A program made the position numbers and the translations under genes. From assembly GCA_016208165.1 (NCBI GenBank), contig JACQYL010000053.1, positions 21,447-85,446 of the forward strand: 64,000 nt of DNA, read 5' to 3'. Below the pieces are notes generated by a model that searched no databases, was not told the DNA's origin, and saw only the letters and a program-made list of their open reading frames with translations. This stretch comes from Deltaproteobacteria bacterium. GTDB lineage: Bacteria > Desulfobacterota > Desulfarculia > JACQYL01. Numbering within the stretch: position 1 is the stretch's first letter; each line of letters opens with the position of its first letter. This document shows positions 20,005 through 35,760 of the stretch, piece by piece.

Positions 20005-20043
20005 CAAAAAAACCGGGAGAACCCGATTCAACAGGTTTTCCCG
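20005..20043 (-). terminator. Rho-independent terminator at the 3' end of the minus-strand cytochrome operon
   Basis: Plus strand reads AAAAAAA-CCGGGAGAAC-(12 nt loop)-GTTTTCCCGG. On the minus strand this is a 10-bp GC-rich stem followed by a U7 run, 54 nt downstream of the stop of the 11-heme cytochrome gene. Confidence 0.45.
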
Positions 20044-20096: not shown

Positions 20097-22394
20097 TCAA
20101 CGAAAGCTGTGACAACTGCAGCAATCAAGCCTTTCAGTATGTCCCGCCGGTTGCGCAGTGATCGGACCCGGGCCGCACAGATCTACCTGCGACCCGTCGC
20201 CCCCGCTCAGGTCCGGAGCGAAGGGCACGAACTCGAAGTTGGCGCCCTGATCCGCCATGTGGATTTTTGGATCCACACCGTCGTGACAGGAAGAGCACGC
20301 GGAAGCGGTTGGAGTGATGTTAATATCGTCGTTGGGACTCGCCGCGTCGTTCCCTACTTCGATGGTCGTAGGCAACACGTTGTCGCCGATGGCCGGCAAT
20401 TCAAAGCTTCCATCGATATGACAGGCCTCGCAATCGTTTAACGGCCGGGGATAGCGAACTTCGCTGTAGTCGTTGGGGCTACCGCCAAATCCGTACACCA
20501 CGATGCCTTCGGTCCTGAAACCGTCGGCGGAGGAGGCGCCGGCATGGATGGCATGGATCAAGTATTTGAAATCAATGGTTTCCTGTGTCTTACCGTCGGC
20601 CGTTGTCGCTGAGCCACCCGGGCGCCGGCCGATATCCGTGGCATCCGGGTTATGGCAGATTACGCACAGCTGAGTTTCGTCGTTCCGGTTTGCTCCGTGC
20701 AAGCTCAACAAACCGTGGCACTGATCGCAGTTGGCGATGTCCACAACCTCCCGACGCGCCTGTGGCGTAGCGTCCGTGACGGCAAAAAAATTCACCACGC
20801 CTTTGACCGGCACCCGTACATCGAACACGCCGGGTTCGGATTCCACCGCAGGATGCCCCTCGATGGCCACAACCCCCGATCCGGTCACAGCCGCAGGAAT
20901 GGCCACTCCGGATGTCACTGTAAACGTGCCGTCGCCGTTGTCCACCGCGCTTGTAATCGGATTGATCGAGATGGGCTGAGCCGGGGTGCTGGTGCTGCCC
21001 GTGTTCGTATAATCTTCGGAATTCCAGCCGATGAGGATCGCCAATCGGCTGGCGCCTCCGGGAGCATTGAATTCCGGATCGACGAGAATATCGTAGGGCG
21101 CGTCACCGTTGGTGGGATCCGTAACCGAGAATGTGATCACCGGAAACTGTCCGGGCCCCGTGTTCTGGACGTCCAATATGTTGTATTCGAACCTGGCTGC
21201 GGCGGCCTGTTCCGGAATCACGTGAGTATCCGTGATGCCCGCCGCGCCTCCGGACGCCGGATGACAGTTGACGCAGCTGCGGTTGTCGGGTTGGGCGCCC
21301 CCGGCATGGTTTTCACCGGTCACCAAGTTGACGTCGTCGTGACACGACGTGCATGCGGCAATGGTGGGAACGTTCATCCAGTTGTCACCATCCGGCGTAT
21401 CGGAGTCCGAGCCGTCGTGACATTTGGTGCAGTTGCGCCGATCCTGAGGAAAGACCACGTTGGAGTAGTCGTTTACCGAATCCCCAAAACCATATATCAC
21501 ATATTCACCGCCGGCCTGCACACTGGGCAGGTCCTCACCCGAGTGGATCTTGTGGATCATTACCTTGAAATCAACGGTGTTGCCGCTGTTGGCGTCCGTA
21601 CTGCCCGGATTGTGGCAGGTTACGCAATACTTGACAGCGATCCTATCCCCGCCGTGAAATCCCAGCTTCCGGTGGCACTCGTCGCAGTTCGCGTTCCTCA
21701 CGATCGAGCGAGTGGTTATCGGCGTGCTGCCATCGGGCACGAATTCGAATATGGCGTTATCCGTGTTCTCCGTAGTCTGCATGGCCACGCGATGCGTCAG
21801 GGCGGGATTATACGCGACGGCTACGGGAGACGTTACGTTTTGGATATCGAACGAGAAGGTATAGCTGTAGCTGCCGTCCTGATTGTCCACAAACACGCCC
21901 CCCTGCGTACTCGTCCTTTCCGACGAAGCTTGAACCTGGTCCGTGGTCCCCGGCCCTACATCAGGGGTTTCAATCACATTGATGTAACTCTGCCAGAAAC
22001 TCGCATTGCCGTTTGCAGCGGGATTCAGCTGCGCCAGAGTGAAGCGGATGTTCGAAGGGGCCACAAACGCGAGCGGCTGGCCCGCGTTGAACAGCCTGAA
22101 ATTTATGGTCGTGGCGCCGCCAACGATCGTCACTGCGTCTATGACCCCGGTTATAGTCGTCTCCGGAGTGCTGTGCTGCGCGGCCACGTCTACGATCCGG
22201 CCCGGATCGTGGCACAGCATGCATTCTTCGTTGAATGTCTGCTCCACGAGAGGGGGCGCCTGATCTCCGGTACCGCCGCTCTCGCTGCCGCACCCTGCCA
22301 GAAGTAGAACGTAACCGATCGCAAGGCACAAGACCAAGCTGTTAAACAATCCTTTTCTCATGACACCATCTCCTTCCACTCTGAGGTCCGTCAC
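20097..22394 (-). CDS. Large multiheme c-type cytochrome lipoprotein (11 CxxCH motifs), candidate outer-surface terminal reductase
   Basis: CxxCH motifs: CMLCH, CDECH, CVTCH, CTKCH, CTSCH, CVNCH, CDQCH, CVICH, CEACH, CSSCH, CCSCH. Signal peptide with lipobox LLAGC (alternative start at M12 near 22361). Thr/Gly/Asn-rich, beta-rich composition between hemes. Confidence 0.9.
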   Translation of the reverse strand: MTDLRVEGDGVMRKGLFNSLVLCLAIGYVLLLAGCGSESGGTGDQAPPLVEQTFNEECMLCHDPGRIVDVAAQHSTPETTITGVIDAVTIVGGATTINFRLFNAGQPLAFVAPSNIRFTLAQLNPAANGNASFWQSYINVIETPDVGPGTTDQVQASSERTSTQGGVFVDNQDGSYSYTFSFDIQNVTSPVAVAYNPALTHRVAMQTTENTDNAIFEFVPDGSTPITTRSIVRNANCDECHRKLGFHGGDRIAVKYCVTCHNPGSTDANSGNTVDFKVMIHKIHSGEDLPSVQAGGEYVIYGFGDSVNDYSNVVFPQDRRNCTKCHDGSDSDTPDGDNWMNVPTIAACTSCHDDVNLVTGENHAGGAQPDNRSCVNCHPASGGAAGITDTHVIPEQAAAARFEYNILDVQNTGPGQFPVITFSVTDPTNGDAPYDILVDPEFNAPGGASRLAILIGWNSEDYTNTGSTSTPAQPISINPITSAVDNGDGTFTVTSGVAIPAAVTGSGVVAIEGHPAVESEPGVFDVRVPVKGVVNFFAVTDATPQARREVVDIANCDQCHGLLSLHGANRNDETQLCVICHNPDATDIGRRPGGSATTADGKTQETIDFKYLIHAIHAGASSADGFRTEGIVVYGFGGSPNDYSEVRYPRPLNDCEACHIDGSFELPAIGDNVLPTTIEVGNDAASPNDDINITPTASACSSCHDGVDPKIHMADQGANFEFVPFAPDLSGGDGSQVDLCGPGPITAQPAGHTERLDCCSCHSFR

Positions 22395-22403
22395 AAACTT
22401 ATG

Positions 22404-23000
22404 TTATCCCTTGTCGTGAAGGTAGAACTCCTCGTACAAGACGATCGCCTTCTTTACTGCGAATGTCGCCGCACGGGATGATATGGTCGCCCCGGCGATC
22501 CCGGTAATGTCTTTACCGACCGTTAGAACGGAACCGCTGGTCTTACCTTGGTACTGATCCATGAAACTACGTCTCGCGATGGGACGTCCCCTTTTTTCCT
22601 GATAGCTCATCACGAGCACTCTCTGGACGGCGCCCCTCAGATCCATTGCGATCATGAACTCGACAGGGCCCCATTTTCCGGGTTGGTCATCAATAACGGC
22701 CACCCCTATTTTTTTTCCGTCCTTTTCAGCAAAGTAGAAATCGATCTTCTTGCTTGCAACCACGGCTGCGGACTCTGAACCTTCCTGGAGAAATTCGAGG
22801 CTTCCTCCCAACCGTTCCGTCACGCGTTGCTCAACCTCGCCTTTCAACCTTTCCGTCTGTTTGATGATCTTGGTGCCCGCACCAAAAACCTCGAGCAGGG
22901 CCTCTTTGAGCGTCAACAAGGTGAACGCGTGGCCGAGAACAACAGAAGCGGCGAAAACGGCCACTGCGCTTACTACAACAAGAGCTTTCTGCTTTGTCAT
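22404..23000 (-). CDS. Membrane-anchored FMN-binding domain protein (FMN_bind; RnfG/NqrC/PplA-like flavinylation substrate)
   Basis: N-terminal TM helix. C-terminal region DITGIAGATISSRAATFAVKKA contains the conserved D..(S/T)GAT(I/L)(S/T) motif whose Thr is the FMN attachment site in NqrC/RnfG. Start taken at MTKQK (23000), which is preceded by an AGGAGA RBS. Confidence 0.8.
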   Translation of the reverse strand: MTKQKALVVVSAVAVFAASVVLGHAFTLLTLKEALLEVFGAGTKIIKQTERLKGEVEQRVTERLGGSLEFLQEGSESAAVVASKKIDFYFAEKDGKKIGVAVIDDQPGKWGPVEFMIAMDLRGAVQRVLVMSYQEKRGRPIARRSFMDQYQGKTSGSVLTVGKDITGIAGATISSRAATFAVKKAIVLYEEFYLHDKG

Positions 23001-23013
23001 GTGGTGTCTCCTG

Positions 23014-24036
23014 CTATTCGATAGTGGAAATCGCCTGGAGGCGATCTTTGAGACCGGAAGAGTACAAGACTTCACCGGATTCGGTGACCATGATCACCTC
23101 CATGCCGGGAATGCTCTCAACGATCTCGAGACCTTTCTCGGGCCCCAAAACGAACAACGCCGTATTCCAAGCGTCTGCGAGAGCCGGGTCCCCGTACAGG
23201 ATCGTAGTGCCCGTGAGTCCTGAAGCGGGATACCCTGTCTTCGGGTTAAAGATGTGGTGATAGCGCTTACCCTGGTCCATGAAGAATCGCTCGTAATCCC
23301 CCGATCCCATGATCGAGAGGTCCTCCGCCTCTATGAATCCGAGAAGGCCGTCGCCCCGTGGGTCTTTGATTCCCACCTTCCAGGACCGGAGTCCCTTTTT
23401 CCCCATGGCGTATACGTCTCCCCCGGCATCGATCAAGGCTGAGGTCACTCCTTCAGCCCGCAACACTTTTATCGCCTCACCCACCGCGTATCCTTTTGCA
23501 ATGCCGCCTAAGTCGATCCGAATATCGGGCCTAGTCTTTTCCACCTTCGAGTTCCGGACGACCAGATGTTTGTAGCCGATCTTTTCGATGCATCGTTCGA
23601 TGCTTTCGTGATCGGGGACGGAGGGATGGTCTCCATAAAACCCCCATAGCGATATGAGCGGACAGATCGTGATATCAAAGGCGCCGTCCGAATCGCGACT
23701 CACGCCTAAGGCTAATTTCACGAGATCCACGATCTCGCTGTCTGAAATGGGGGCGCCCTCATTGTTGAATGCATACAGGGGGCTTTTAGGGTTCAGGAAA
23801 TCAAACTTCTCATCGACTTCTTCCATCCGCTGCAAGGCCGCGTTCACGGCCTTGGATGTCAATTTCTCGGGGCCGACGGCATAGACGGTTACGTAGGTAT
23901 CCATCATCACGCGCGTCTGCTTTTCCAGATGGAATCGATAGGAGTTGTAGGTTCTCACGCTAAAAAAGACAGCGAACAGCACTCCGACAACTATGAATAT
24001 GACTTTCGCCGTCTTAGACAGGCTATTTTGCTTCAA
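23014..24036 (-). CDS. apbE: FAD:protein FMN transferase (ApbE family), membrane-anchored
   Basis: N-terminal TM helix, then the typical ApbE layout (MDTYVTVYA...GVSRDSDGAFDITI.PLI..WGF...IDLGGIAKGYAV...GD.Y..G). 340 aa. Confidence 0.85.
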   Translation of the reverse strand: MKQNSLSKTAKVIFIVVGVLFAVFFSVRTYNSYRFHLEKQTRVMMDTYVTVYAVGPEKLTSKAVNAALQRMEEVDEKFDFLNPKSPLYAFNNEGAPISDSEIVDLVKLALGVSRDSDGAFDITICPLISLWGFYGDHPSVPDHESIERCIEKIGYKHLVVRNSKVEKTRPDIRIDLGGIAKGYAVGEAIKVLRAEGVTSALIDAGGDVYAMGKKGLRSWKVGIKDPRGDGLLGFIEAEDLSIMGSGDYERFFMDQGKRYHHIFNPKTGYPASGLTGTTILYGDPALADAWNTALFVLGPEKGLEIVESIPGMEVIMVTESGEVLYSSGLKDRLQAISTIE

Positions 24037-24153
24037 TCCACCTCCTAGTTATGCTTCTTCCAGATCAGATCTCTCAGCCGGTCCGACCACGTGCGGCGGA
24101 CTACGCTTGTCCTCGTCAAACATAAGCCGGACATCATTTGGATCTTCCGGTTC

Positions 24154-25425
24154 TTAAAAGGTCGTCCTCCATCCCAACGTCCATCGGATGTACTTGAGCG
24201 TTTCCGAACCATCAGACCGATCGGCATCCACGAGTTCGATCTGTGGTATGATCGTCGAGTTACTGGTAATCCAGTAGTTCAAAGCCATGGACAATGTCTT
24301 ATAATTATCCGTAACGGCGCTCGTTGAAGGGAAGAAGAGATCTACATCGCTATACTTGGCCAACACCCGCCATTCGGGATTGAAAGTGTACATGGCCCGG
24401 ACGTAATATCCTTCGTTCACCGCATCCGCCGTTCCCCCGCCGATCAGCGGGGAATCTTCCTGTTCTCTTCGCAGGTATTCGCCGAGAAGGCTGATGCCCT
24501 TGTATCGCAAGTCCGCACCACCGAGCCATTGCCACGAGTTGTTATCATCGTCGTTATCCCACCTGCCCCATCCCAAGGAGCCCAGAATCCGTATGCTTAC
24601 GTCCATCAAGGAGAATTCGGGCGCTACATGCAGCAACAGATTCTTGGTGCCGTTGTTGTCCACGTAACGGCTCTCTTCATTGTCCCCGTTCAGATATGGA
24701 TAGAAATACACGGGCAATGAGAAATTCTCGAAATCGAAGTTGCGGTACAGCTCCACCCCCAGCGATCGCCAGGACTCCAAAAAGAGCAAGCCATTGTTCC
24801 CGTGATACTGCTCATGCCACCAAGTCTGTCTGGCGTATTCCTCGCTGAACATCGGGTAGAAGGCGCCCACCCGCGCTTCCAGTTCCCAGGGAAGCCTGAC
24901 CGTCATGTATGCCTCGTCAAGGTCCACATCCACGGAAGCCGAGCCCGCTCGGGTGATGTCTCCGCCGAGCCCGGGGGTGGCGGCGGCCAACACTTCGATC
25001 TTGGGAGCAACATCGAGACTCAGCCACTCGTTGAGCACTTTGCTGAAATAGAGATATACGTCACTGATGCCGGCGGAAAGATTGTTGTTCTGGCTCACAT
25101 CGTTGCGCTCACCGTCCGTCCGATCCAGCATGAAGAACTTGAAATGTCCCCCAATGTTGACCCCCTTCCGCACCTCCTCCATGATTTTTGAAGGCATCTG
25201 CGACAGTTCGTCAACACTGTCCTCGAGCTCGGGAATGGCTGCAATCTCTTCCTTCTGGGATTTCTGCTCCTCCTCGAGTTGTTCCACCCGCTCTTTCATC
25301 GTATCCATTGCCTTTTGCATCTGCTGGATCTGCTCTTTAAGATCGGCAATTTCGTCCGACATCGACCGAGCAGGCGCCAACAAAACACAAACAATGACAA
25401 CCACCAATGCAATTCGCAGCTTCAT
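24154..25425 (-). CDS. Putative outer-membrane beta-barrel (porin-like) protein with an N-terminal coiled-coil segment
   Basis: Cleavable signal peptide, about 60-aa heptad-rich Glu/Gln/Lys segment, then alternating aromatic/hydrophilic beta-strand pattern rich in Tyr/Trp/Asn/Gly. C-terminal ...LGWRTTF ends in Phe as in OMP beta-signals. Confidence 0.5.
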   Translation of the reverse strand: MKLRIALVVVIVCVLLAPARSMSDEIADLKEQIQQMQKAMDTMKERVEQLEEEQKSQKEEIAAIPELEDSVDELSQMPSKIMEEVRKGVNIGGHFKFFMLDRTDGERNDVSQNNNLSAGISDVYLYFSKVLNEWLSLDVAPKIEVLAAATPGLGGDITRAGSASVDVDLDEAYMTVRLPWELEARVGAFYPMFSEEYARQTWWHEQYHGNNGLLFLESWRSLGVELYRNFDFENFSLPVYFYPYLNGDNEESRYVDNNGTKNLLLHVAPEFSLMDVSIRILGSLGWGRWDNDDDNNSWQWLGGADLRYKGISLLGEYLRREQEDSPLIGGGTADAVNEGYYVRAMYTFNPEWRVLAKYSDVDLFFPSTSAVTDNYKTLSMALNYWITSNSTIIPQIELVDADRSDGSETLKYIRWTLGWRTTF

Positions 25426-25443
25426 ACCTCCCCCTCCTTATGT

Positions 25444-26292
25444 TTACCTAATAATGGTCCGGATCATTCTATTGACGGACAGGCCGAGTGACTTCCGGAA
25501 CCTCCGGGCGCCACCCACCCTCTCTACGTTTCCCTCCTTTTTATCCGTTCTCGTTTCACTCGGGGGTTCCATCCCTGGCCGGAGAAGCATAGCTACCAAG
25601 TGATTCTCGTGCTGTTGAGCAACCCTCCGATGAGTAGAAAGATCCCGCACAGTTTCCAGATCGGCGCTGCCTTCGAACATCGTCCGATCCATGGGGAAGT
25701 TCTGCCTGCGAAGATGAGCAACGGTGAAATGGATGATAAACACGTGCCCCATGGCCAGCATGCCCTCGATACGATGCACCCAAAGGGCTATGTTCAAGCC
25801 CCATCCCGGTATGATGCGCGTCGAAATCAGAGGGAAAGCCAGGATCAAGCCCGTTGTGCCCATGACCATCATGCCCCAGAATACCGCTCCCAGGTAATCC
25901 ACCTTTTCCCAATATCCCCAGCGGTCAAGACGTGGATGAGATCCTTTGCCGAGAAACCAGGCCACATGCTGGAAAAAATCCTTCACATCATGAGGTTGGG
26001 GAAACATGGAATCCGGGCCCATGAGGGATGACGGAAAAGTACGCCAGCGAATCCGGAAGGCCAGGTACACGAGATGGAGCAGAAAGGCCAGAATCATGAA
26101 AAGTCCCACGTACTTGTGAACCACGAGGGCCGACTCGTAGCCGCCGAACACGCGGGCAAGCCCTTTTCCCCAAGCCGTTTGGATATACATGCGCGCAAGT
26201 CCGGACGCGCCCTGCGTCAAGAACGTGATGATCAGCACCACATGTGAAATGCGTTCTACGGTGTTAAACCGTTTAAGTCTGATCTTCTCCAT
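25444..26292 (-). CDS. Membrane b-type cytochrome (Ni/Fe-hydrogenase b-type cytochrome subunit / cytochrome b561 family; candidate quinol oxidase)
   Basis: RFNTVERISHVVLIITF at the N-terminus is characteristic of the PF01292 family. Four hydrophobic helices with conserved His. Start taken at MEKIRLKRF. Overlaps the upstream gene stop by about 20 nt. Confidence 0.7.
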   Translation of the reverse strand: MEKIRLKRFNTVERISHVVLIITFLTQGASGLARMYIQTAWGKGLARVFGGYESALVVHKYVGLFMILAFLLHLVYLAFRIRWRTFPSSLMGPDSMFPQPHDVKDFFQHVAWFLGKGSHPRLDRWGYWEKVDYLGAVFWGMMVMGTTGLILAFPLISTRIIPGWGLNIALWVHRIEGMLAMGHVFIIHFTVAHLRRQNFPMDRTMFEGSADLETVRDLSTHRRVAQQHENHLVAMLLRPGMEPPSETRTDKKEGNVERVGGARRFRKSLGLSVNRMIRTIIR

Positions 26293-26995
26293 CCGTTTGA
26301 TGACCCTCGTCGCTAGGTTTTCTCTTGAGCAACAACTCCCTGAGACTCCAAAGGAACGTATGAGGCAGAAACACCACAAAGATGCTCACCGACATCCCTA
26401 TCATGATCCAGAACGCATAAAACAGGATCGGGAAATCTTTTCTTGTGCTGAGAGACGCCGGATTTGGCGAATGAACGACGTAGCTGGCAAACGAGGCGTT
26501 GGCTCCTTCGTGACACTTGGAGCAGACGTAGGCATGCCTTCGTATGGGATTCATGGGTGAATAATAGTATTCGCCGCCGGAGATCGGCTCTCCACCATGG
26601 CACTGGCGACACGTCAGATTGGCCCGAACGGTGTGCAGGTCTCGGGTTTCTCTTGGATGGCAATCTTCGCAGGTTTGATACTCGTAGAACCTCAGCCCCA
26701 CATGGGAATCTTCGAGGCGGCTCCGAATTCCTATCCTGGCCGCAGCCGGAGTGTACGGCAGCAGTCCTCGCCTCAAACCCGGAATCGCAATCAACGGGGA
26801 TTCGCTGAAGGGTCTAGCCTCATATTCCTCGTAGTACCCGGTACTCGCTTCATAGTTCTTGTAGCGACGGATGGACGACGCCACTTCCTCCTGAGCATGG
26901 CACAAAGCAGGCCCCAGGAGCAGCGCCGCCGCCAGGCCTAAAAGCAGGGCTATCGATACTCTCCCTGCGGCTCGGTTTCTCATAAGGAATCGCAT
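26273..26995 (-). CDS. Triheme c-type cytochrome with N-terminal signal/anchor and C-terminal transmembrane helix
   Basis: CEDCH, CRQCH and CSKCH motifs. Hydrophobic C-terminus FPILFYAFWIMIGMSVSIFVVFL followed by a charged tail. Confidence 0.8.
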   Translation of the reverse strand: MRFLMRNRAAGRVSIALLLGLAAALLLGPALCHAQEEVASSIRRYKNYEASTGYYEEYEARPFSESPLIAIPGLRRGLLPYTPAAARIGIRSRLEDSHVGLRFYEYQTCEDCHPRETRDLHTVRANLTCRQCHGGEPISGGEYYYSPMNPIRRHAYVCSKCHEGANASFASYVVHSPNPASLSTRKDFPILFYAFWIMIGMSVSIFVVFLPHTFLWSLRELLLKRKPSDEGHQTDGEDQT

Positions 26996-27193
26996 ATCCG
27001 TATCACCAATATTCCCGTATCAGCGCTCAGTGCATTTTCCCGGTCAGGATTCACCCATTGTTGGTGGAACGGGTGACCTGTTCGGCCCTGTCTGGATCTT
27101 CTTCCAAAGAAGAACTCACTTCTTCAATCGGTAGGTTTCCGCCGGATTCCTTCCAACTAAAGGAAGTATTCTGTCTTCCGGATTTCCGGCATG

Positions 27194-28525
27194 TTACTTG
27201 AGTTCAAACGTTTCCGCGCCTTCCTCCTTAAGCTGTATTTCCGGATCTTTTCCTTCCCCTTCCGGGGAGCCGGCCGATTCCGATTCGCCTCCGCCAAAGC
27301 CTCCAAAAGCATCTCGCTGCAACTTCTTCAAGTCGGCGCCCTTATGCTTGTGGCACGTCTCGCAGGAATTAGGAATGTTGGGATTCTTGATCGTGTCGAT
27401 GGGCAACAGGGTGACGAACACATGGCTGTGTAGATCCCCGGATTCCGCGTTTTTCGCGATCCTCGGCATATGACATCCTACGCAATTTGCAAAAGTGTGG
27501 ATGGCGTGCGCCTTAACCCTGTTGACCAACTGATGGCACTGGAAGCACTGCTGCGAACCGGCGGCGGACGTTTGGGACTTGGTTGGAGGCAGACCGATCT
27601 GGTGTACAAAGTGGCAGGAGGTACAGGTAACGCCTTCCACGTAATGAGCCGATTTCAGCCAATCGTTGTATTGCTGATGATGCCCCTTGGAGAACTCATT
27701 CATGTAGAAGTTTCCCGTGTCGCCCTCAGCATACGAAGTGGCGTTGTAATAGGCGGCAAGGGCTTCTCCCGGCTGGTAATCGACGGGCCAATGAACGCCT
27801 TCGGCTACCGTGGACATGCCGCGCTCGTGACACGAACCACAGATCTGAACCCTCGCTCCCGTGGACAATTTGGCCGGATTTACAATTGTTTTACGCTTTT
27901 CGAACACGGCTGTTTTCGGTAAGGCGACATGCCAGGAACCTTTCCCATGACACGCCTCGCACCCTATGCTCAACTCGCTGAACCTGTTGTTTTTCAGATC
28001 CACACCGGTGGCGTGGCAACCACCGCAATACTGGAGCCAGGGTTTTTGATCCCAGTCACCTTCGCGATAAGTCACCCATCGATGAGTGTCCATATTGTAT
28101 TGAATGGGAGCGATGTAAAGAGCGCCGTTTTTTTCAACGATGAAACGCTGCTGCCATTGCCCCCCAATGGCGTATTTGATCTCGTCAAGTTTGGGGATAT
28201 AGATCTGATCCGTCGATGGCTTGGCTGCATCTTCCGATTGGGTGAAGCTCTCCCGAATCTTGGCCTCACTATAAGGGACCATAATGGCGCTGGCGTCCTT
28301 TTGCACATCCAGGGTGCTGCGGCTGTGAGAGGTCATCTTCCAGGAATCGTAATGCTGCAGGTGGCACATCTTGCATCGATCCGATCCGGCGTACGTTTTT
28401 GGAGCTGCTGTGATTTCTTCAATATCTACAGGCGCTTCCGGACTACATGCGGCTAAAACAAGGAGTGTCAGACAGACTGCGATAAGCTTCGAACGGCTTC
28501 CCATGACCATGTTCCCCTCCTCCAT
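27194..28525 (-). CDS. Octaheme c-type cytochrome lipoprotein (periplasmic)
   Basis: Eight CxxCH motifs (CKMCH, CGGCH, CEACH, CGSCH, CTSCH, CFQCH, CVGCH, CETCH). Signal peptide with lipobox LAAC. Confidence 0.9.
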   Translation of the reverse strand: MEEGNMVMGSRSKLIAVCLTLLVLAACSPEAPVDIEEITAAPKTYAGSDRCKMCHLQHYDSWKMTSHSRSTLDVQKDASAIMVPYSEAKIRESFTQSEDAAKPSTDQIYIPKLDEIKYAIGGQWQQRFIVEKNGALYIAPIQYNMDTHRWVTYREGDWDQKPWLQYCGGCHATGVDLKNNRFSELSIGCEACHGKGSWHVALPKTAVFEKRKTIVNPAKLSTGARVQICGSCHERGMSTVAEGVHWPVDYQPGEALAAYYNATSYAEGDTGNFYMNEFSKGHHQQYNDWLKSAHYVEGVTCTSCHFVHQIGLPPTKSQTSAAGSQQCFQCHQLVNRVKAHAIHTFANCVGCHMPRIAKNAESGDLHSHVFVTLLPIDTIKNPNIPNSCETCHKHKGADLKKLQRDAFGGFGGGESESAGSPEGEGKDPEIQLKEEGAETFELK

Positions 28526-28607: not shown

Positions 28608-29879
28608 TCACATGAAAGGAGCTTTTTCTTTCACTGAAGATCCGAGGTTCTCATCGATCGTTTCGACACGCGCAAGGTCCCACAGACGGCTCGTACCGTC
28701 CGCCATGACATAGAGAGTCGCCACCCAATTACTGATCCACTCAACGAGATGACTAATTCTTTTCTTCTTTTCCAGCCTTGCTCCACGAATGCTGGTCCGC
28801 GCCGTTTCCCACAGGTACGGTATGGCTTCCCAGGAAAGCGTGAGTTTCGCCGCCACACTCTTTGACGAAATCCCGAAAAATCGCAGGAACGACAGTAAAC
28901 CGGTCAGTCCGTTGGCCAAGTCCGCCAGCGACGTGGTCATGGTTAACAGGAAACTCAGAAGCATCAGATAGAAAAGGCGAAATGCAAACTGAAACCCGTA
29001 GGTAACCCCTTCAATGGTCATCGTCAAATACGGTATCTCGAATATCGGACGGCCTTCCCCCTGAAGCAGAGCCGGGATCAGAAAAGATGTCAGAAGCAGC
29101 CATCGATACCTTCTTGATCTCCCCAGTAGCTGGGACACCGGAATTCTCGATAGCAACATCGAAGCCAGGAGAAGTCCGGAAAGGCTGAGCATTAACCAGA
29201 GGTTGGCGCTGATCAGAAGAATGAGCGACAAAATCCCACATCCGGCAATCTTTGCCTTGCTTGACAACTGATGGATACAAGAGTCCCGATGCACATAATG
29301 TCGAGATTCCGGCCTGGGCATCCCCTCCGATACCGTCAGAGCGGCTTCGGTCATCGTCCCGATGTGTTCCAACCGTATGCACACGGAGCGTGCAATCGCT
29401 CCGGTAACCCAGCCCATGAGCACGCCTCCGATGCAAAGCCAAGGCAGGAACACAAAAACACCTTCGTGTTTGATTAGTATGAGGTAGGCGAGGACCAGTT
29501 GGGTCAGATTATGGCAAAGGGCGCCCAAAATACTGATCCCGATCAAGCTGAAACGATAGTGACTGCTCGAACCGGAGACCCAGAAAAGGAAGCCCATGGC
29601 GCAGGTGCTGAGAAAGGCCCCGGAAATGCTCAGTACGAAAGGAGGGGACAGGAACGTGCCCATGAGGAAGGAACTGAGAATGGCCCGCAACAAAGCGACT
29701 TCCAGGGCTGCTTTAAAACCCAGGGTCACCAGGGCTACCAAAGTAATCATGTTGGCCAGCCCCAGCCTGAGACCGGGTATGGGGTGGGGCACAATCGATT
29801 CCGCTATTTGAAGCACACAAGAGAGGGAAACGAAAAGCGCTATTTTTTGCATTCGATCGGCTGACAAGGATGCTTCCAT
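28608..29879 (-). CDS. Fusion membrane protein: N-terminal Gx-transporter domain (formerly 'heptaprenyl diphosphate synthase component I', Hpt_synth_I) plus C-terminal ECF-transporter T-component (EcfT/CbiQ)-like domain
   Basis: Residues about 10-175 match the Gx transporter family (IAESIVPHPIPGLRLGLANMITLVALV...ISILGALCHNLTQL). Residues about 200-420 match EcfT/CbiQ (LTMTIEGVTYGFQFAFRLFYLMLLSFLLTMTTSLADLANGLTGLL..L.FFGIS...A.KLTLSW..IPYL.E.A). Confidence 0.65.
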   Translation of the reverse strand: MEASLSADRMQKIALFVSLSCVLQIAESIVPHPIPGLRLGLANMITLVALVTLGFKAALEVALLRAILSSFLMGTFLSPPFVLSISGAFLSTCAMGFLFWVSGSSSHYRFSLIGISILGALCHNLTQLVLAYLILIKHEGVFVFLPWLCIGGVLMGWVTGAIARSVCIRLEHIGTMTEAALTVSEGMPRPESRHYVHRDSCIHQLSSKAKIAGCGILSLILLISANLWLMLSLSGLLLASMLLSRIPVSQLLGRSRRYRWLLLTSFLIPALLQGEGRPIFEIPYLTMTIEGVTYGFQFAFRLFYLMLLSFLLTMTTSLADLANGLTGLLSFLRFFGISSKSVAAKLTLSWEAIPYLWETARTSIRGARLEKKKRISHLVEWISNWVATLYVMADGTSRLWDLARVETIDENLGSSVKEKAPFM

Positions 29880-29900: not shown

Positions 29901-30308
29901 TCAGCGAACCACGGCATCCACTAGCGGCGCTTTAGTGGATTGAACTTCGATCAGAATCCTGTTTGGGACACAAACGATAACCTCTCCCGGTACCTGTATC
30001 CAACCCGTACGAACGCAAATCTGTTTGCGGCAATTCGATCGCGCCACTCTGACTTTGCCCTCGTTTACTTCGATGTCCATCTCCTTGGAGGGAAGCGTGA
30101 ATACGTTGTTTTTCGACAGGTTCAACTCGGCCACCAGAAGGCCGTCCTTGAAAACGACGGCCGAGGTAGCTCGCCGGCTCTGACGGCCGGAGTCGTGTCC
30201 CATCCAGAGGATGCTTCCGGCGGAAAGGACGACAATCAGAAAGATCGAAAGCTTTTCGAGTCGAGTCATCCTGCGCGCATAGACTTGCCCCTGGCCTTCG
30301 TCCATCAT
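29901..30308 (-). CDS. NusG domain II-containing small membrane protein (NusG_II, DUF1312-like)
   Basis: About 120-135 aa. N-terminal TM helix then a beta-rich domain with spaced Cys (CRKQICVRTGWIQVPGEVIVCVPNRILIEV). The size, topology and pairing with a Gx-transporter gene 21 nt downstream are typical of this family. Alternative start at MTRLEK (30269). Confidence 0.6.
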   Translation of the reverse strand: MMDEGQGQVYARRMTRLEKLSIFLIVVLSAGSILWMGHDSGRQSRRATSAVVFKDGLLVAELNLSKNNVFTLPSKEMDIEVNEGKVRVARSNCRKQICVRTGWIQVPGEVIVCVPNRILIEVQSTKAPLVDAVVR

Positions 30309-30419
30309 TCATGGAGACTTTCTTGATGGAGAGCGCGTCCACAATTCACACGTATGGGAACCCTCAAGAGATATTTCAAGTCCCGAATCCCACTTTGCAG
30401 CACACAACGAGCGGCATTC

Positions 30420-30620
30420 ATTCCGATCGGGGTTGGACTAGAGACTCACGCGGCAGATAGGCGTTTTCTTCGTTGTGCGCCAAGCCACATATCGACTTTT
30501 TATTTTCTATACGAAATATAGTACAGGAGTCAACACCGATCTTAACTTTTTGTTTTACTATTGATTTCAACCGCCGGCGTCTTTAGCTGAAACTATATCG
30601 AAATCATCTACTTTGATCAC
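30420..30620. promoter_or_regulatory. AT-rich segment inside a 950-bp divergent intergenic region (likely promoter region of the minus-strand cytochrome/flavin operon)
   Basis: Marked local drop in GC (TTTTTATTTTCTATACGAAATATAGTAC...) in an otherwise high-GC sequence, directly upstream (minus-strand sense) of the first gene of the operon. Confidence 0.25.
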
Positions 30621-31262
30621 AAAACAGACGCCGGATGACAGTTGGAAATCCGTTTCCCGGTCAAATGATTCTCAGCAAATCGATCTCTCTGTCAAAGACG
30701 CAGCTGTAGAAGAGAAACCGCCCTTAAGAGCACATCATAACACTGGGAACTGCTTAAGATTGAACTTCCTGGGTTTTTTACACGAATCGGCGTTCATACT
30801 CATGTATGGCCGCATCGAGCTACGATCCCGACGCTGACTTCATGTGCAAGGGCTTCTTTCGATCACGGTCTTTTTAGAGGCGGGACTCGATCACGCACCA
30901 TGCGTTCGTGATTCGATCTGTTTTGCTCAGGCTGCGATACCTCTATAAAAAAGAGGGCTCTATGCCCTTACGAAGCAATTATACGATAACAGGAGAGCCG
31001 CAGGCCTGTCAAGAAATCGCCACGAAATTGCAGCGAACTCCGCACCGGGAATTGGCCTGTAATCGCGCACGGCCATCATGACTTCGGGATCACGCGGACG
31101 GTATAGCCCGAACAAGAACGATTTCTCAATTGCCTTTTCACGAAAAGGCGACTACTTTTTTGATGGTAATCCTGTTGAACAACATCGGCGAACTGTCACG
31201 ACCGAAATCATCCTGCCGCGGGAATACGATCCGTATACCCCCGAGTAATTAGGAGGACCACC

Positions 31263-32228
31263 ATGTTCAAGACTAGAGTCACCGAGATGTTGGGCATCAA
31301 ATATCCGATTATCGGTGGAACCATGATGTGGCTCAGCACTCCGGAATATGTTGCCGCCGTGTCCAGGGCCGGGGGGCTGGGCATTCTTGCTTCCGCCATG
31401 TACCAGAGCAAGAACGAACTGGCCGTCGCCATAGATCGGGTGCGCGAACTGACGGAAAAGCCTTTTGCCGTCAACCTTAATCTCTTTCCCGCCATGCGCG
31501 CGATAGACAACGGCGAGTACCTGGATGTGCTGCTCGAGAAAGATGTCAAGGTCGTGGAAACTTCAGGGCATTCCGCACCTGACGACTTGTGCGCGCGCTT
31601 CAAGAAGGCCGGAATGACCTGGATACATAAATGTGTCGGTGTCCGCTACGCCCTAAAGGTCCAGGACATGGGCGCGGACATTGTTACGGTGGTAGGCTAT
31701 GAAAACGGCGGCGCCACGGGCAAGCTCGATATTGGCGCCCTGGTTCTGGTGCCCAGCGTAGTCGACGCCTTGAGCATTCCCGTTATCGGTGGCGGCGGGG
31801 TTTCCGACGGCCGGGGTTTCCTGGCGGTGCTGGCTCTGGGAGCGGAAGGCGTCATCATAGGAACCCGGCTCCTGGCCACACGGGAAGCCCCCCTGCATGA
31901 TGCATTGAAGCAGTCCCTCGTCGGCGCGAGCGAGCTTGACACCATACTTGTCATGCGCTCGATCAACGCCACTCACAGAGTCTGGAACAATGCCGCGGCG
32001 CAAAAATGTCTAGAAATTGAAGCCCGGGGCGGAACGTTGAACGAAATCCTGGCAATCGCCACCGGGGCGAATGCAAAACGAATGTACGACAGCGGGGATC
32101 TTAACGCAGGCATCATGGCTTGCGGCCAGGGCGTGGGACTGGCGCATGATATCCCCACCATACGGGAGCTGTTGGACCGCATCGTGTCGGAAGCGGCCGG
32201 CTTGGCGAAAAAACTCGCTTCCAACTAG
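31263..32228 (+). CDS. Nitronate monooxygenase / FabK-like FMN-dependent oxidoreductase (NPD family)
   Basis: MFKTRVTEMLGIKYPIIGGTMMWLSTPEYVAAVSRAGGLGILA is the typical NMO/FabK N-terminus. Strong RBS AGGAGGA 7 nt upstream. Confidence 0.85.
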   Translation: MFKTRVTEMLGIKYPIIGGTMMWLSTPEYVAAVSRAGGLGILASAMYQSKNELAVAIDRVRELTEKPFAVNLNLFPAMRAIDNGEYLDVLLEKDVKVVETSGHSAPDDLCARFKKAGMTWIHKCVGVRYALKVQDMGADIVTVVGYENGGATGKLDIGALVLVPSVVDALSIPVIGGGGVSDGRGFLAVLALGAEGVIIGTRLLATREAPLHDALKQSLVGASELDTILVMRSINATHRVWNNAAAQKCLEIEARGGTLNEILAIATGANAKRMYDSGDLNAGIMACGQGVGLAHDIPTIRELLDRIVSEAAGLAKKLASN

Positions 32229-32408
32229 GAAAGCACCGCTGCATCACCTCCTTACCATTAGACGTTCAATTGAGATAGCAGGAGAATTCCGGGGGAACCT
32301 CTATTCTGAAGACTATGGCTCCGGGCTCGCTCCGTTTTCCCGGGCCGGCAAATGGTGACGCACCGGGTGGTGAGGGGATGTTCCTCGATGCCCGGGATTA
32401 GAAACCAT

Positions 32409-33425
32409 TTATCGCTTCGCGGCGGGCGCTATCGGTTCGTATTGCGGTCGCGTGAACCCTTGCCGGAACAGCGGGTGGCGGAGCACCTGTTCCGGCAGCT
32501 TTATTGGGGGCTCTCCAGTCAGGCCGTCATAGTGCAGCCGAATCTGCCTTACCAGGGCTGTCTCCACCGCCTCTTTCGCCGCCCATCCGATCAATTGGGC
32601 CGGCTTGCAGTGCCCCCCGGCGCAGGTCACTGAACGGCCCGAGCCGGAAACGATCATCACTTCATCCGTCCCGGTGCCCGTGGCCATGGCTTCCGGCGTA
32701 TAGGAACTTCGAATGCCCAGGTCCTGCAGCACAGCGGTCTTGGCTTCCGTAACCGTAATGATGGATCGGGCCATCTGTGCGTCTCCCAAAGAGGCGTTTG
32801 TCAGCACGATAACATTAATGGTCCCAAAGGGAATGCTTTCCTCGGATGAAGTTGATTCGGAGGCTCCTGTTTCCCTGGGTACGTGTTTATTCTCGAACCA
32901 GTCCCCGTAGTCCGTTCCCACGCGCATGGCGTTCGTTCCAGCACCCGCTGTCGCCAGGACGGTGACCGTGAGCCAGTCGTAGCGCTGGGTGGCCACGCCC
33001 AACGTATCCAAATCCGCCCCGGTGGAGAGCCGGACCAGATCAACGATGGAAAAACCGGCCATGTCGGCCAACCGCTCGAAGGCCACGCGCGTATAATCGG
33101 CGATCTGTCGGTCGTGCAGGACTCCCCACAGGGACGGGGGCACGTTGTGATTGGCGGCTACGGAGGAATGACGCAGCCCCTGAAGCGTGGAAAGGATCCA
33201 CCTGGGACTGTCCAGCTTGATCAGCAACGTTTTCAGGGTGTGCCGCCCTTCCATTTCAAGCGAATAACGATACACCTGGGCCTGAGCCCCCAGTTCCTCG
33301 GGCGTCGGGATGGCCCGGACCCCTATGTCCGCTTCGGAGGCCACACCGTGGGTTGCGACAACCAACCAGCACGCCACGATGACCCATTTCAGCAGGGATA
33401 AACCGTTCCTGGACCTGTAGTTCAC
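32409..33425 (-). CDS. Putative adenosylcobinamide amidohydrolase (CbiZ-like)
   Basis: Overall similarity pattern to the CbiZ family, including an ATGTGTDEV segment. The N-terminus looks like a signal peptide, which is unusual for CbiZ. Assignment tentative. Confidence 0.4.
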   Translation of the reverse strand: MNYRSRNGLSLLKWVIVACWLVVATHGVASEADIGVRAIPTPEELGAQAQVYRYSLEMEGRHTLKTLLIKLDSPRWILSTLQGLRHSSVAANHNVPPSLWGVLHDRQIADYTRVAFERLADMAGFSIVDLVRLSTGADLDTLGVATQRYDWLTVTVLATAGAGTNAMRVGTDYGDWFENKHVPRETGASESTSSEESIPFGTINVIVLTNASLGDAQMARSIITVTEAKTAVLQDLGIRSSYTPEAMATGTGTDEVMIVSGSGRSVTCAGGHCKPAQLIGWAAKEAVETALVRQIRLHYDGLTGEPPIKLPEQVLRHPLFRQGFTRPQYEPIAPAAKR

Positions 33426-33911
33426 TCTGTACCTCCTCGCCTTTCAATTCGGATATGAAAAACGTAGCGCGCTGCTCCGGCATCGGTCAAGCCGATTGTT
33501 CTTCGTGCGGTTGCCATCGCCAGGATCCCGGGTTTTTTCACGTTTCCGGAAAATGGCGTCTTTCGTTCAGCTTCGGGCTTTCGGCTGAGGACCGAGGAAT
33601 CGACGGTATTGACCGGAAACCACGTCTTGGCCTGAAAGGAGCAGCCCTAGGTCTCTGATCCGGCCGTTCCGGATAAGGTCCCGCCGCCCCGGCGCGCCAA
33701 TTTTCCATCGGACGGTCCGCTTTTTGGCGACCCTTTCTTTCGCTGCTTTTCTTCGGGTACTTGTAGGGCGACGGAGAAAAAAGTAAAATGACCGCTTGGA
33801 AGGAATCGCTTGCATTACACCTGTGGAAACAGCGTTTCCAGTTCGTTCCCCATATGATACGGTCTTCCACAGAAAGAACGGCCGCCGGATCGTCGTAACA
33901 TCCACAGCGAC

Positions 33912-35123
33912 GTGAGCATCCCGGCCATGATACCTCTTTACACTGACCCGTCGATAAGGCTAATGAATCTGACCGAATCCTTTCGAACATCACCCGACAC
34001 CGAGTCATCGTCTTTGGACACAGGCATTCGAATGGGCAATCCGGGTGCGGGTGTACGTTTCTTTAGAACCAAGGCCTTCGCGGTAATACTGATCGTGTGC
34101 CTTGGATTCTCTTTGCGCCTTCGTACCGGGTTGCTGTTTCCTTTAAGCTATGACGAATACCATTATCTGTCGGCGGCCAACAACTACGCTTACTGGATAT
34201 ATCAAGGGCGGATCGATCGTGTATTGACCGCCAAGCAGAACTATATGCATCCCCCCCTGGTCAAATATATCTTCGCCGCCGCGATACTCCTCACCAACAG
34301 CAAAGGCGACTTCGAGAACAACCGTCTGGTGGTTCGAATGCTCTCCGTTCTTGCGGGAACCGCATGCGTGGCGGTCCTGGCCTGGATGTGCCCCATGGCC
34401 GGTCTGGCATTGGCGGTCCATAACATAGGGGTTAAATTCAACGGCTTGGCCTACCTGGACTCCTTCCCCATGCTGTTCTCTTTCCTCGCCGTGTTGGCTT
34501 GTGAAAAGGCCGGCGCCCGGACCGGTAAATGGTTCTACGGTTCCGCCGTCCTGTTGGCCGCCACTGCGGCCTCGAAGTTGCCCTTTGTTATCGTGGGCGT
34601 TCCCATTGTGTATTTCACGTGGATCTCGCACCGCCCCAGGACCCGTTCACTGCTTAAATACGGTCTGACGTTTTTCCTCGCATTCGCACTTCTCAACCCG
34701 GTCTGGTGGTTTCGAACCGGAACCGAAGTAGTGGCAACGGTTCTGTTTCACTACGACTACAGTCGCAGTGAATATGTAAGCCACTTTGGGCTCCCGTGGT
34801 ATCAGCCATTGAAATACCTGTTCATGACCCGTACCGTGGCCACGGAACCGAGGCAGTTGCTTCAGCTCGACCCTTACGTCTTCTTGGCGAGTCTTTTAGG
34901 ATTGGGTCTGTTGTGGAAGCAAAGACCCATTTACCTTTGCTGGTATGCGACGGCGATGAGCTTTCTGTTCATCTGGCCCACGAAGTGGACTCACTACCCC
35001 ATGATTCTCCTGGTTCCGCTCTGTCTTTCATGCGGGCTTGCCGTTGAATGGACGGCCCGGAGATGGGGTTTCTTTACGAAATCGCTCGCTCAACGGTGGC
35101 CGATAAAGATGAAGGCGCCATAA
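33912..35123 (+). CDS. GT-C fold glycosyltransferase (PMT_2/ArnT-like, lipid-carrier-dependent)
   Basis: Multi-TM protein with conserved first periplasmic loop LSYDEYHYLSAANNYAYWIY...HPPLVKY typical of ArnT/PMT family 39/83 glycosyltransferases. Confidence 0.6.
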   Translation: MSIPAMIPLYTDPSIRLMNLTESFRTSPDTESSSLDTGIRMGNPGAGVRFFRTKAFAVILIVCLGFSLRLRTGLLFPLSYDEYHYLSAANNYAYWIYQGRIDRVLTAKQNYMHPPLVKYIFAAAILLTNSKGDFENNRLVVRMLSVLAGTACVAVLAWMCPMAGLALAVHNIGVKFNGLAYLDSFPMLFSFLAVLACEKAGARTGKWFYGSAVLLAATAASKLPFVIVGVPIVYFTWISHRPRTRSLLKYGLTFFLAFALLNPVWWFRTGTEVVATVLFHYDYSRSEYVSHFGLPWYQPLKYLFMTRTVATEPRQLLQLDPYVFLASLLGLGLLWKQRPIYLCWYATAMSFLFIWPTKWTHYPMILLVPLCLSCGLAVEWTARRWGFFTKSLAQRWPIKMKAP

Positions 35124-35288
35124 GTCCGGAGGAGATGAAATCCCTAAGACCTTTGTAGCACCCGAGATGTTCTTTGGCGCAACCGTTGGCAACAGGCCGC
35201 TCCCGGATTCGGACGGCGGCAACAGACACCTTCTACCCTCTTTTGCGGGACATGGCCCCCGGAAGATCGACCACCCTGAGAGATCGCG

Positions 35289-35753
35289 ATGATTGAATTC
35301 AAGCTAAATGGAAACATCGTCCGATTGGAGGTTTCTCCGGACATGCCTTTGTTATGGGTGCTCCGGGACATCCTTGGACTGACCGGAACCAAGTACGGTT
35401 GCGGAGAGGGCTTATGCGGGGCCTGCAACGTTCTTCTTAACGACAAGGCTGTTCATTCCTGCGTCACGCCGGTTTCCAGGGTTCAGGGCATGAATGTCAC
35501 CACCATCGAGGGTTTGGCGGCGGTCGAGAACCATCCGGTGTTATCGGCCTGGATCGAGGAGGAGGCGCCGGAGTGCGGGTATTGCCAGCCCGGACAGATT
35601 ATCTCGGCCACGGCCCTTTTGGCTGAAAACCACAGCCCCACGGATTCGGATATCGACGAAGCCATGTCTCAGAACCTCTGTCGATGCGGAACATATCGCC
35701 GAATCCGTCGCGCCATCCATCGTGCGCGGGCGCGCATGAATAAGGAGCGGTGA
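35289..35753 (+). CDS. (2Fe-2S)-binding small subunit of a molybdenum hydroxylase (CoxS/IorA-like)
   Basis: [11 protein letters not shown] and CGYCQPGQI...CRCGTY cluster motifs. Confidence 0.9.
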
Positions 35754-35760
35754 TCCGGCG

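Follow-up and report, generated by a model that had tools for sequence, protein, structure and literature searches.

The window analysed here—the whole 64-kb stretch (64,000 nucleotides) of contig JACQYL010000053.1 from a Deltaproteobacteria bacterium—encodes on its reverse strand a membrane protein that unites two parts of a transporter of the energy-coupling factor (ECF) type. Within one polypeptide, an ECF S component is followed by an EcfT-like T component, an assignment on which the sequence profile, the AlphaFold2 model and Foldseek concur for either half. The gene of this protein, hereafter the fusion, is the second of nine co-directional genes running from 30308 to 20097 (Table 1).

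Table 1. The fusion, its parts and the surrounding gene cluster in window coordinates (aa, amino acids; nt, nucleotides; ORF, open reading frame; TM, transmembrane; CH, coupling helix; FAD, flavin adenine dinucleotide; FMN, flavin mononucleotide).
Feature	Position	Strand	Extent	Evidence and remarks
Fusion ORF (gene 2)	28608..29879	(-)	423 aa	ATG start, no internal stop (ORF listing)
S domain (EetB / PF07456)	29352..29879	(-)	residues 1-176	six predicted TM helices; Pfam, AlphaFold2, Foldseek
Linker, cytoplasmic	29298..29351	(-)	residues 177-194	poor conservation, predicted disorder; variable alignment columns
T domain (EcfT/CbiQ-like)	28608..29297	(-)	residues 195-423	four TM helices and CH1-CH3; Pfam, profile, Foldseek
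CH2 and CH3	28650..28865	(-)	residues 339-366 and 375-~400	column counts against Lactobacillus brevis EcfT, 121 fused proteins; AlphaFold2 limits
Gene 1: NusG_II-domain membrane protein (EetA-like)	29901..30308	(-)	135 aa	PF07009, E 2.2e-24; 21-nt gap to fusion
Gene 3: multihaem c-type cytochrome lipoprotein	27194..28525	(-)	443 aa	8 CxxCH, LAAC lipobox
Gene 4: c-type cytochrome	26273..26995	(-)	240 aa	3 CxxCH, signal peptide, C-terminal TM helix
Gene 5: membrane cytochrome b (b561 / FdnI-like)	25444..26379	(-)		PF01292, E 1.1e-11
Gene 6: outer-membrane porin-like protein	24154..25425	(-)	423 aa	weak Porin_O_P / Porin_4 matches; signal peptide, N-terminal coiled coil
Gene 7: ApbE FAD:protein FMN transferase	23014..24036	(-)	340 aa	PF02424, E 2.7e-81; N-terminal membrane anchor (extracytosolic)
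Gene 8: FMN_bind protein	22404..23000	(-)	198 aa from Met26 (223-aa ORF)	PF04205, 40.5 bits; signal peptide or anchor
Gene 9: OmcA/MtrC-like multihaem lipoprotein	20097..22394	(-)	765 aa	PF22113, 193 bits, and PF22112; 11 CxxCH, LAGC lipobox
Terminator-like hairpin, then T run, past the last cluster gene	20010..20029	(-)		consensus scan only
Pair of sigma-70-like promoter matches, upstream of NusG_II	31012-30983, 30695-30668	(-)		consensus scan only; 10 found in the region vs 7.4 expected

Both domains score above the Pfam thresholds. PF07456 (Hpre_diP_synt_I; EetB or "Gx transporter") covers residues 16–164 (E 1.5e-39; 135.8 bits against a cut-off of 30), and PF02361 (CbiQ/EcfT) covers residues 200–362 (E 4.1e-14; 53.2 bits against a cut-off of 25). 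They are accompanied by a weaker match to PF12822 (ECF S component) over the N-terminal half and by a sub-threshold CbiQ match in NCBIfam. The original prediction, made from the letters of the stretch, had described a single ORF with a Gx-transporter domain at about residues 10–175 and an EcfT/CbiQ-like domain at about residues 200–420. The ORF listing and the homologues confirm the one frame without stop or frame change, and Pfam and AlphaFold2 place the domain limits where they had been drawn.

The AlphaFold2 model, run with a 41-sequence alignment, reaches a mean predicted local distance difference test (pLDDT) score of 76 and a predicted template modelling (pTM) score of 0.73, the latter of which hints at a defined mutual arrangement of the S and T domains. 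The S domain is modelled as six helices (residues 2–29, 41–53, 55–73, 79–104, 112–136 and 139–176), followed by a disordered linker (177–200; pLDDT below 50 at residues 177–192). The four TM helices of the T domain span residues 207–223, 227–244, 248–272 and 289–315, where the third is separated from the fourth by a short hairpin, and three further helices (318–335, 339–366 and 375–410) lead to the end of the domain at around residue 410. In a Foldseek comparison with the PDB, the top matches 1–8 are all EcfT chains (9kym_C, 7nnu_D, 8bms_C and 4huq_T among them; probability 1.0), and on the side of the S components the model matches RibU 3p5n_A (probability 0.99, TM-score 0.52) and 5edl (probability 1.0, TM-score 0.54). 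The family profile aligns with the L. brevis EcfT chain 4huq_T at E 2.6e-31 over profile positions 179–410.

The EcfT of ECF-FolT2 consists of TM helices TMH1–5 and coupling helices CH1–3 (PMC4820897), and the T domain of the fusion aligns with the EcfT of group II ECF importers—ECF-FolT of L. brevis and L. delbrueckii (PDB 4HUQ, 5D3M, 7NNU)—through TMH1–4 and CH1–CH3. S components dock on the ECF module by a small-xxx-small, AxxxA-type motif in helix 1 (PMC4820897). In the fused family, A14 of this helix is invariant and position 18 is Ser or Ala (A14xxxS18 in the window protein); the S domain shares with RibU (3P5N) the six-helix S-component fold and an AxxxA-type motif in helix 1. The family alignment further displays a conserved L1 loop, QIxESxxPHPIPGLRLGLAN. 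Since the termini of S components are cytoplasmic (PMC4820897) and the N-terminal motif of EcfT opens the T domain (HYxPGxSFLHRL versus RYLPLDSVVHRL), a fusion of the S C-terminus to the T N-terminus is topologically consistent. With this motif at its start, a complete T component is therefore attached to the S domain by the latter's cytoplasmic C-terminus.

The coupling region had been called typical in the original prediction, which quoted SLADLANGLTGLL.FLRFFGIS (residues 316–338) for it. CH1–CH3 are indeed present, but the arginine motif of CH3 is missing, as is TMH5, and the quoted stretch is CH1, the conserved CbiQ signature, and not the ATPase-contacting CH2/CH3. For column counts, 121 fused proteins were aligned to L. 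brevis EcfT. Within CH2/CH3, P354, W357, R361, I364–R365, L378, P380, S383 and Y390 are conserved, and no T-domain residues are conserved better than P354, W357, R361, L378, P380, S383 and Y390. R365, which lies at the C-terminus of predicted CH2 (339–366), is R in 93 of the 121 proteins, H in 11, and stands in I-R-G in the window protein, and by sequence alignment K or R lies opposite L. brevis R185 in 84 of 121. A basic residue of CH2 is kept under either alignment; the Ala-Arg-Gly signature itself is not. CH2 and CH3 are clearly under constraint, which could stem from their role as a platform for the S domain, from an ATPase or from both.

The fusion is widespread and not rare. A word-indexed homologue search gave 246 matches at E ≤ 0.001, and both Pfam domains are present in all of the best 120 of these 246 clusters, at 42–84% identity and lengths of 396–461 aa. 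Some homologues bear the NCBI label 'Gx transporter family protein' or the JGI label 'uncharacterized membrane protein/energy-coupling factor transporter transmembrane protein EcfT'. Searched exhaustively with HMMER, 1.84 billion representatives yielded 3,784 matches at E ≤ 1e-3, 111 of them at E ≤ 1e-30; single chains of 340–480 aa matching both domains form about 110–130 clusters at 50% identity, and standalone EetB-like proteins (160–200 aa) rank only beneath the fused chains. An exact-sequence look-up of the window protein gave no match, and an 81%-identical copy (P0002) was used instead, which lies on a 108-kb contig within a cluster of the same nine genes. When GTDB was scanned with a single genome for each species, the fusion was found at 57 loci, all in metagenome-assembled genomes (MAGs), which belong to Desulfobacterota, Omnitrophota, Poribacteria, Elusimicrobiota, Armatimonadota, Cloacimonadota, Planctomycetota, Verrucomicrobiota and Goldbacteria, with one Clostridia MAG in addition.

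This spread bears out the conservation of the fusion. Rivera-Lugo et al. 2023, mBio (PMC9973259), already cite three EetB plus ECF-T single-chain proteins (WP_021725833.1, MBE6480012.1 and MBQ3267887.1) as evidence for an S–T partnership, and by the description given there they have the same two-domain architecture as the window fusion. The argument from fusion to partnership is hence correct, yet already published.

Standalone EetB-like genes (166–197 aa) were met at three further loci (L060–L062), where they adjoin Rnf genes and a radical-SAM gene, and at L062 such a gene also lies near ApbE and NusG_II; no T-component or ATPase genes were seen near these standalone genes. Of two standalone T-like matches (P0250 and P0261), P0250 lies on a 1.3-kb contig, may be a fragment and was set aside as uninformative.

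The neighbours of the fusion are conserved to different degrees when counted at those of the 57 loci that have enough flanking sequence. NusG_II lies directly upstream at 49 of 50 loci and ApbE downstream at 33 of 38. Orthologues of the porin, adjoining either the fusion or ApbE, and of the FMN_bind protein occur at 27 of 38 loci each, the OmcA-like gene at 18 of 38, and the remaining three cytochrome genes (8-haem lipoprotein, 3-haem cytochrome c and cytochrome b) at Desulfobacterota-type loci only. In the window itself, ApbE is the fifth gene downstream of the fusion, with four genes between, and not four genes downstream as first counted. The FMN_bind protein carries the flavinylation motif (for its definition, see PMC8238504) as D-I-T-G-I-A-G-A-T-I-S at about residues 190–200 of the 223-aa ORF. 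[S/T/A]GAT is found in 34 of 34 FMN_bind orthologues, with Ser or Thr at the first position of the site in 33; the window protein reads A-G-A-T, and the modified Thr is kept. The porin was considered as a second flavinylation substrate of the DUF3570-like kind and rejected: Pfam gives no DUF3570 match, and [ST]GA[ST] is missing in the window porin and, among 34 orthologues, present in just 3.

The fusion is followed by a three-gene module that encodes the porin (~420 aa, with its coiled coil at the N-terminus), ApbE and FMN_bind (~196 aa), in the window at 22404–25425 (-) and likewise at L005, L009–L011, L019, L022, L023, L027, L035, L037, L054 and L055. It extends to phyla that lack the cytochrome genes—Omnitrophota, Elusimicrobiota, Armatimonadota, Cloacimonadota and Goldbacteria. 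The porin paired with a flavinylated protein might form a porin–flavoprotein conduit through the outer membrane or a flavin exit route. At Desulfobacterota-type loci alone, the flavin module lies among a set of cytochrome genes (8-haem lipoprotein, 3-haem cytochrome c, cytochrome b and 11-haem OmcA/MtrC-like lipoprotein), and the genes corresponding to 20097–28525 look like a hybrid flavoprotein/cytochrome cluster for extracellular electron transfer. Its cytochrome b, which is probably the quinol-oxidising entry point, probably starts at the internal Met30; the orthologue at L001 is called at 275 aa. At an Omnitrophota locus (L028, 7917–11545), NusG_II–fusion–ApbE is directly followed by nqrA and nqrB of the Na+-NQR, and one exporter module appears to serve different flavinylated complexes. 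The EetA-like and ApbE genes are constant while the flavinylated client varies, which is the pattern expected of a cofactor supplier.

A characterised counterpart exists in Listeria monocytogenes. As laid out in PMC9973259, where eetB is equated with PF07456, Listeria EetB is modelled with an ECF-S-like fold and FAD is pulled down with it, FmnA serves as the ECF-T subunit, and EetB, FmnA, EcfA and EcfA' are all needed for the flavinylation that depends on ApbE (FmnB). An EetB–FmnA–EcfA–EcfA' exporter of FAD was proposed in that paper, and eetB is reported to be co-localised with eetA (3,328 genomes), apbE (2,169 genomes) and ECF-A genes (796 genomes). The link to EetB and FmnA that the original prediction had drawn is thus correct and published. 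Like the system of the window, the Listeria system pairs a PF07456 S subunit with an ECF-T-like subunit, has an eetA-like (NusG_II) neighbour, and is co-located with ApbE and a flavinylated FMN_bind protein of extracellular electron transfer. The window system differs in having S and T on one polypeptide, in its diderm host, in a T domain without TMH5 and without the CH3 arginine motif, in that no ATPase gene was found in the window, and in a cytochrome/porin-based conduit in place of the Ndh2/PplA-based one of Listeria.

On balance, the fusion probably acts as a single-chain S–T module by which FAD is exported to the periplasm, where ApbE uses it. An exporter feeding ApbE, as already raised in the original prediction, is well supported by the synteny across phyla and by the flavinylation motif of the FMN_bind protein; FAD as the substrate and the outward direction are inferred by homology to Listeria EetB–FmnA. 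In such a mechanism, the EetB-like S domain at the N-terminus of the inner-membrane protein would bind cytoplasmic FAD, and a flexible cytoplasmic tether of about 20–25 residues would join it to the EcfT-like scaffold. The coupling helices of this scaffold would be the platform on which the S domain topples, exposing FAD to the periplasm. Membrane-anchored ApbE would use this FAD and attach FMN to the AGAT threonine of the co-encoded FMN_bind protein. Together with the cytochrome b/c pair, the periplasmic multihaem lipoprotein, the porin and the OmcA/MtrC-like surface cytochrome, this flavoprotein might then constitute a conduit from quinol to the outside. The covalent tether would make the S domain dedicated and non-exchangeable, as in a group I system. 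In group II importers the subunits are separate, the S components can be exchanged and transport runs inward. By analogy, the energy source would be an EcfA/A'-type ATPase pair encoded elsewhere.

Several observations weigh against this assignment. Substrate and direction would be carried over from a single characterised homologue, that of a monoderm, to which the S domain is linked via PF07456. The T domain is, as far as the alignment tells, a reduced form of EcfT. A TM-like or hydrophobic segment after CH3, which would correspond to TMH5, is present in 0 of 121 fused proteins; group II importers, unlike the fusion, have five TM helices in T and make contact with EcfA and EcfA' through a pair of conserved Ala-Arg-Gly motifs. 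The four helices of the fusion nevertheless lie within the known range, since T components with 4–8 TM helices have been reported (PMC6828968). According to published descriptions, every T component conserves the X-R-X arginine motif of CH3, which is essential for ATPase assembly (PMC6828968, citing Neubauer 2009; PMC4820897 Fig. 6), and it is lost throughout the fused family, where the alignment shows variable columns at this place. Of 121 fused proteins, only 8 have [AGS]R[GSAV] in the 22 residues that follow Y390, and some members of the family end as early as 6 residues past this invariant tyrosine; the window protein has A403-R404-V405 in a region of pLDDT below 50. An 8-residue loop between CH2 and CH3 is deleted in all members as well, and distant fused forms (29–40% identity) likewise have a short C-terminus.

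The same holds for the search for an ATPase, which screened all ORFs of the window and of 58 loci by regular expressions for Walker A plus LSGGQ. No ORF with both was found in the 64-kb window, no candidate partner gene for an ATP-binding cassette (ABC) ATPase within ±10 kb of the 57 loci, and none adjoining three further fused homologues, which makes more than 60 loci without an adjoining partner gene. The original prediction had suggested looking for a partner ECF A component elsewhere in the genome; the window contains none. The only regular-expression match, a 663-aa ABC protein at L040, lies 6 kb off on the opposite strand and was rejected as unrelated; also rejected as a partner was the MalK-type ATPase that a sugar ABC system contributes to the surroundings of one distantly related fused homologue.

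These observations would suit a module of the same substrate and direction that operates without ATPases. Its T-like domain would serve only as a toppling platform in cis, and FAD would move down its gradient, pulled by irreversible consumption through ApbE; export down a concentration gradient with the tiny fluxes needed would be in line with this. We consider such a module an appreciable but minority possibility, and the broader claim that the whole fused EetB–T clade is a self-contained, ATPase-independent ECF-type exporter—facilitated diffusion driven by irreversible flavinylation—rather unlikely. ATPases of group II ECF systems are usually encoded apart from the S-component genes, and because of this their absence from the operon is weak evidence, the search having covered the window and the flanks of the loci. 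CH1–CH3 are moreover strongly conserved, and R365 at the end of CH2 is placed like the canonical X-R-X. The Listeria system also requires its ATPases, according to PMC9973259.

Import or salvage of a flavin (riboflavin, FMN or FAD) from the periplasm, in the manner of RibU, is improbable. All structurally characterised ECF systems are importers of the same fold; the S domain, however, belongs to PF07456, the EetB family, and not to the RibU family. The conserved partners—extracytosolic ApbE and the protein that it flavinylates—depend on FAD beyond the cytoplasm, and S-subunit directionality is strict in Listeria (PMC9973259).

A non-flavin substrate, for example a polyprenyl or quinone-related lipid, is more improbable still. 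It is suggested by the Pfam name 'heptaprenyl diphosphate synthase component I' and by a Poribacteria MAG (L008, 8602–11966), where the NusG_II–fusion pair is flanked by a polyprenyl synthetase and a UbiE/COQ5 methyltransferase, and where no ApbE was found downstream of the fusion, over the 4.6 kb that the contig extends there. This neighbourhood is probably behind the misleading Pfam name. ApbE is by far the commoner neighbour, the S domain has an ECF-S fold and not a prenyltransferase fold by Foldseek, and the sole tested member of the family binds FAD and is needed for flavinylation (PMC9973259). The polyprenyl synthetase and UbiE setting fits a flavin substrate too. Genes of quinone biosynthesis reportedly also belong to the extracellular electron transfer locus of Listeria.

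That the fusion is an artefact of assembly or sequencing joining two genes can be dismissed with near certainty: the gene is seen as two overlapping ORFs at 3 of 57 loci (L047, L054 and L056), but the split points all differ, L056 has many other broken genes indicative of a low-quality assembly, and the 120 listed homologue clusters as well as the representatives at 50% identity are single chains of like length. We regard the three two-ORF versions as errors or pseudogenes.

New here are the T domain without TMH5, the family-wide loss of the CH3 arginine motif, the lack of an ATPase gene near the examined loci, and the porin/multihaem-cytochrome cluster in a diderm. In the literature, we found no description of the diderm fused clade, of the porin–ApbE–FMN_bind module or of the cytochrome-rich Desulfobacterota cluster, and in the main text of PMC9973259 none of the reduced T domain. 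Known routes of FAD to extracytosolic ApbE are few: PMC9973259, whose emphasis is on Firmicutes, gives Listeria EetB–FmnA and, for some Gram-negatives, 'a previously identified flavin exporter', which does not co-localise with apbE. The fusion places an EetB-type system, as a single chain, in uncultured diderms such as Desulfobacterota, Omnitrophota, Elusimicrobiota and others. There it is tied to the conserved porin–ApbE–FMN_bind module, and in Desulfobacterota also to MtrC/OmcA-like cytochromes. The exporter of Gram-negatives we take to be Bfe, the MATE-family FAD exporter of Shewanella oneidensis. Bfe supplies FAD to the periplasm of a diderm with MtrC/OmcA-type extracellular electron transfer and is, hence, a functional analogue of the fusion, of unrelated fold and family.

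As one gene, the fusion is a handy construct for studying ECF-type export, and its reduced T domain raises the question whether such export needs ATPases. If it did not, the fusion would be the first ECF-derived transporter to dispense with the energy-coupling factor and might offer a general FAD route into the periplasm for many diderm phyla.

Upstream of the cluster, about 0.9 kb (30343–31262) contain no likely gene ORF and no Rfam match, and an Rfam scan of the whole window, in which an FMN riboswitch was sought, gave no match. The homologous position at L001 is occupied by a Y1 (IS200-like) transposase gene. Beyond, 31263–38001 holds genes seemingly unrelated to the cluster: those of an NMO-family FMN enzyme, of a CbiZ-like amidohydrolase and of a membrane protein resembling PMT_2 glycosyltransferases, together with those of two subunits (2Fe-2S and molybdopterin) of an enzyme of the aldehyde oxidase/xanthine dehydrogenase type.

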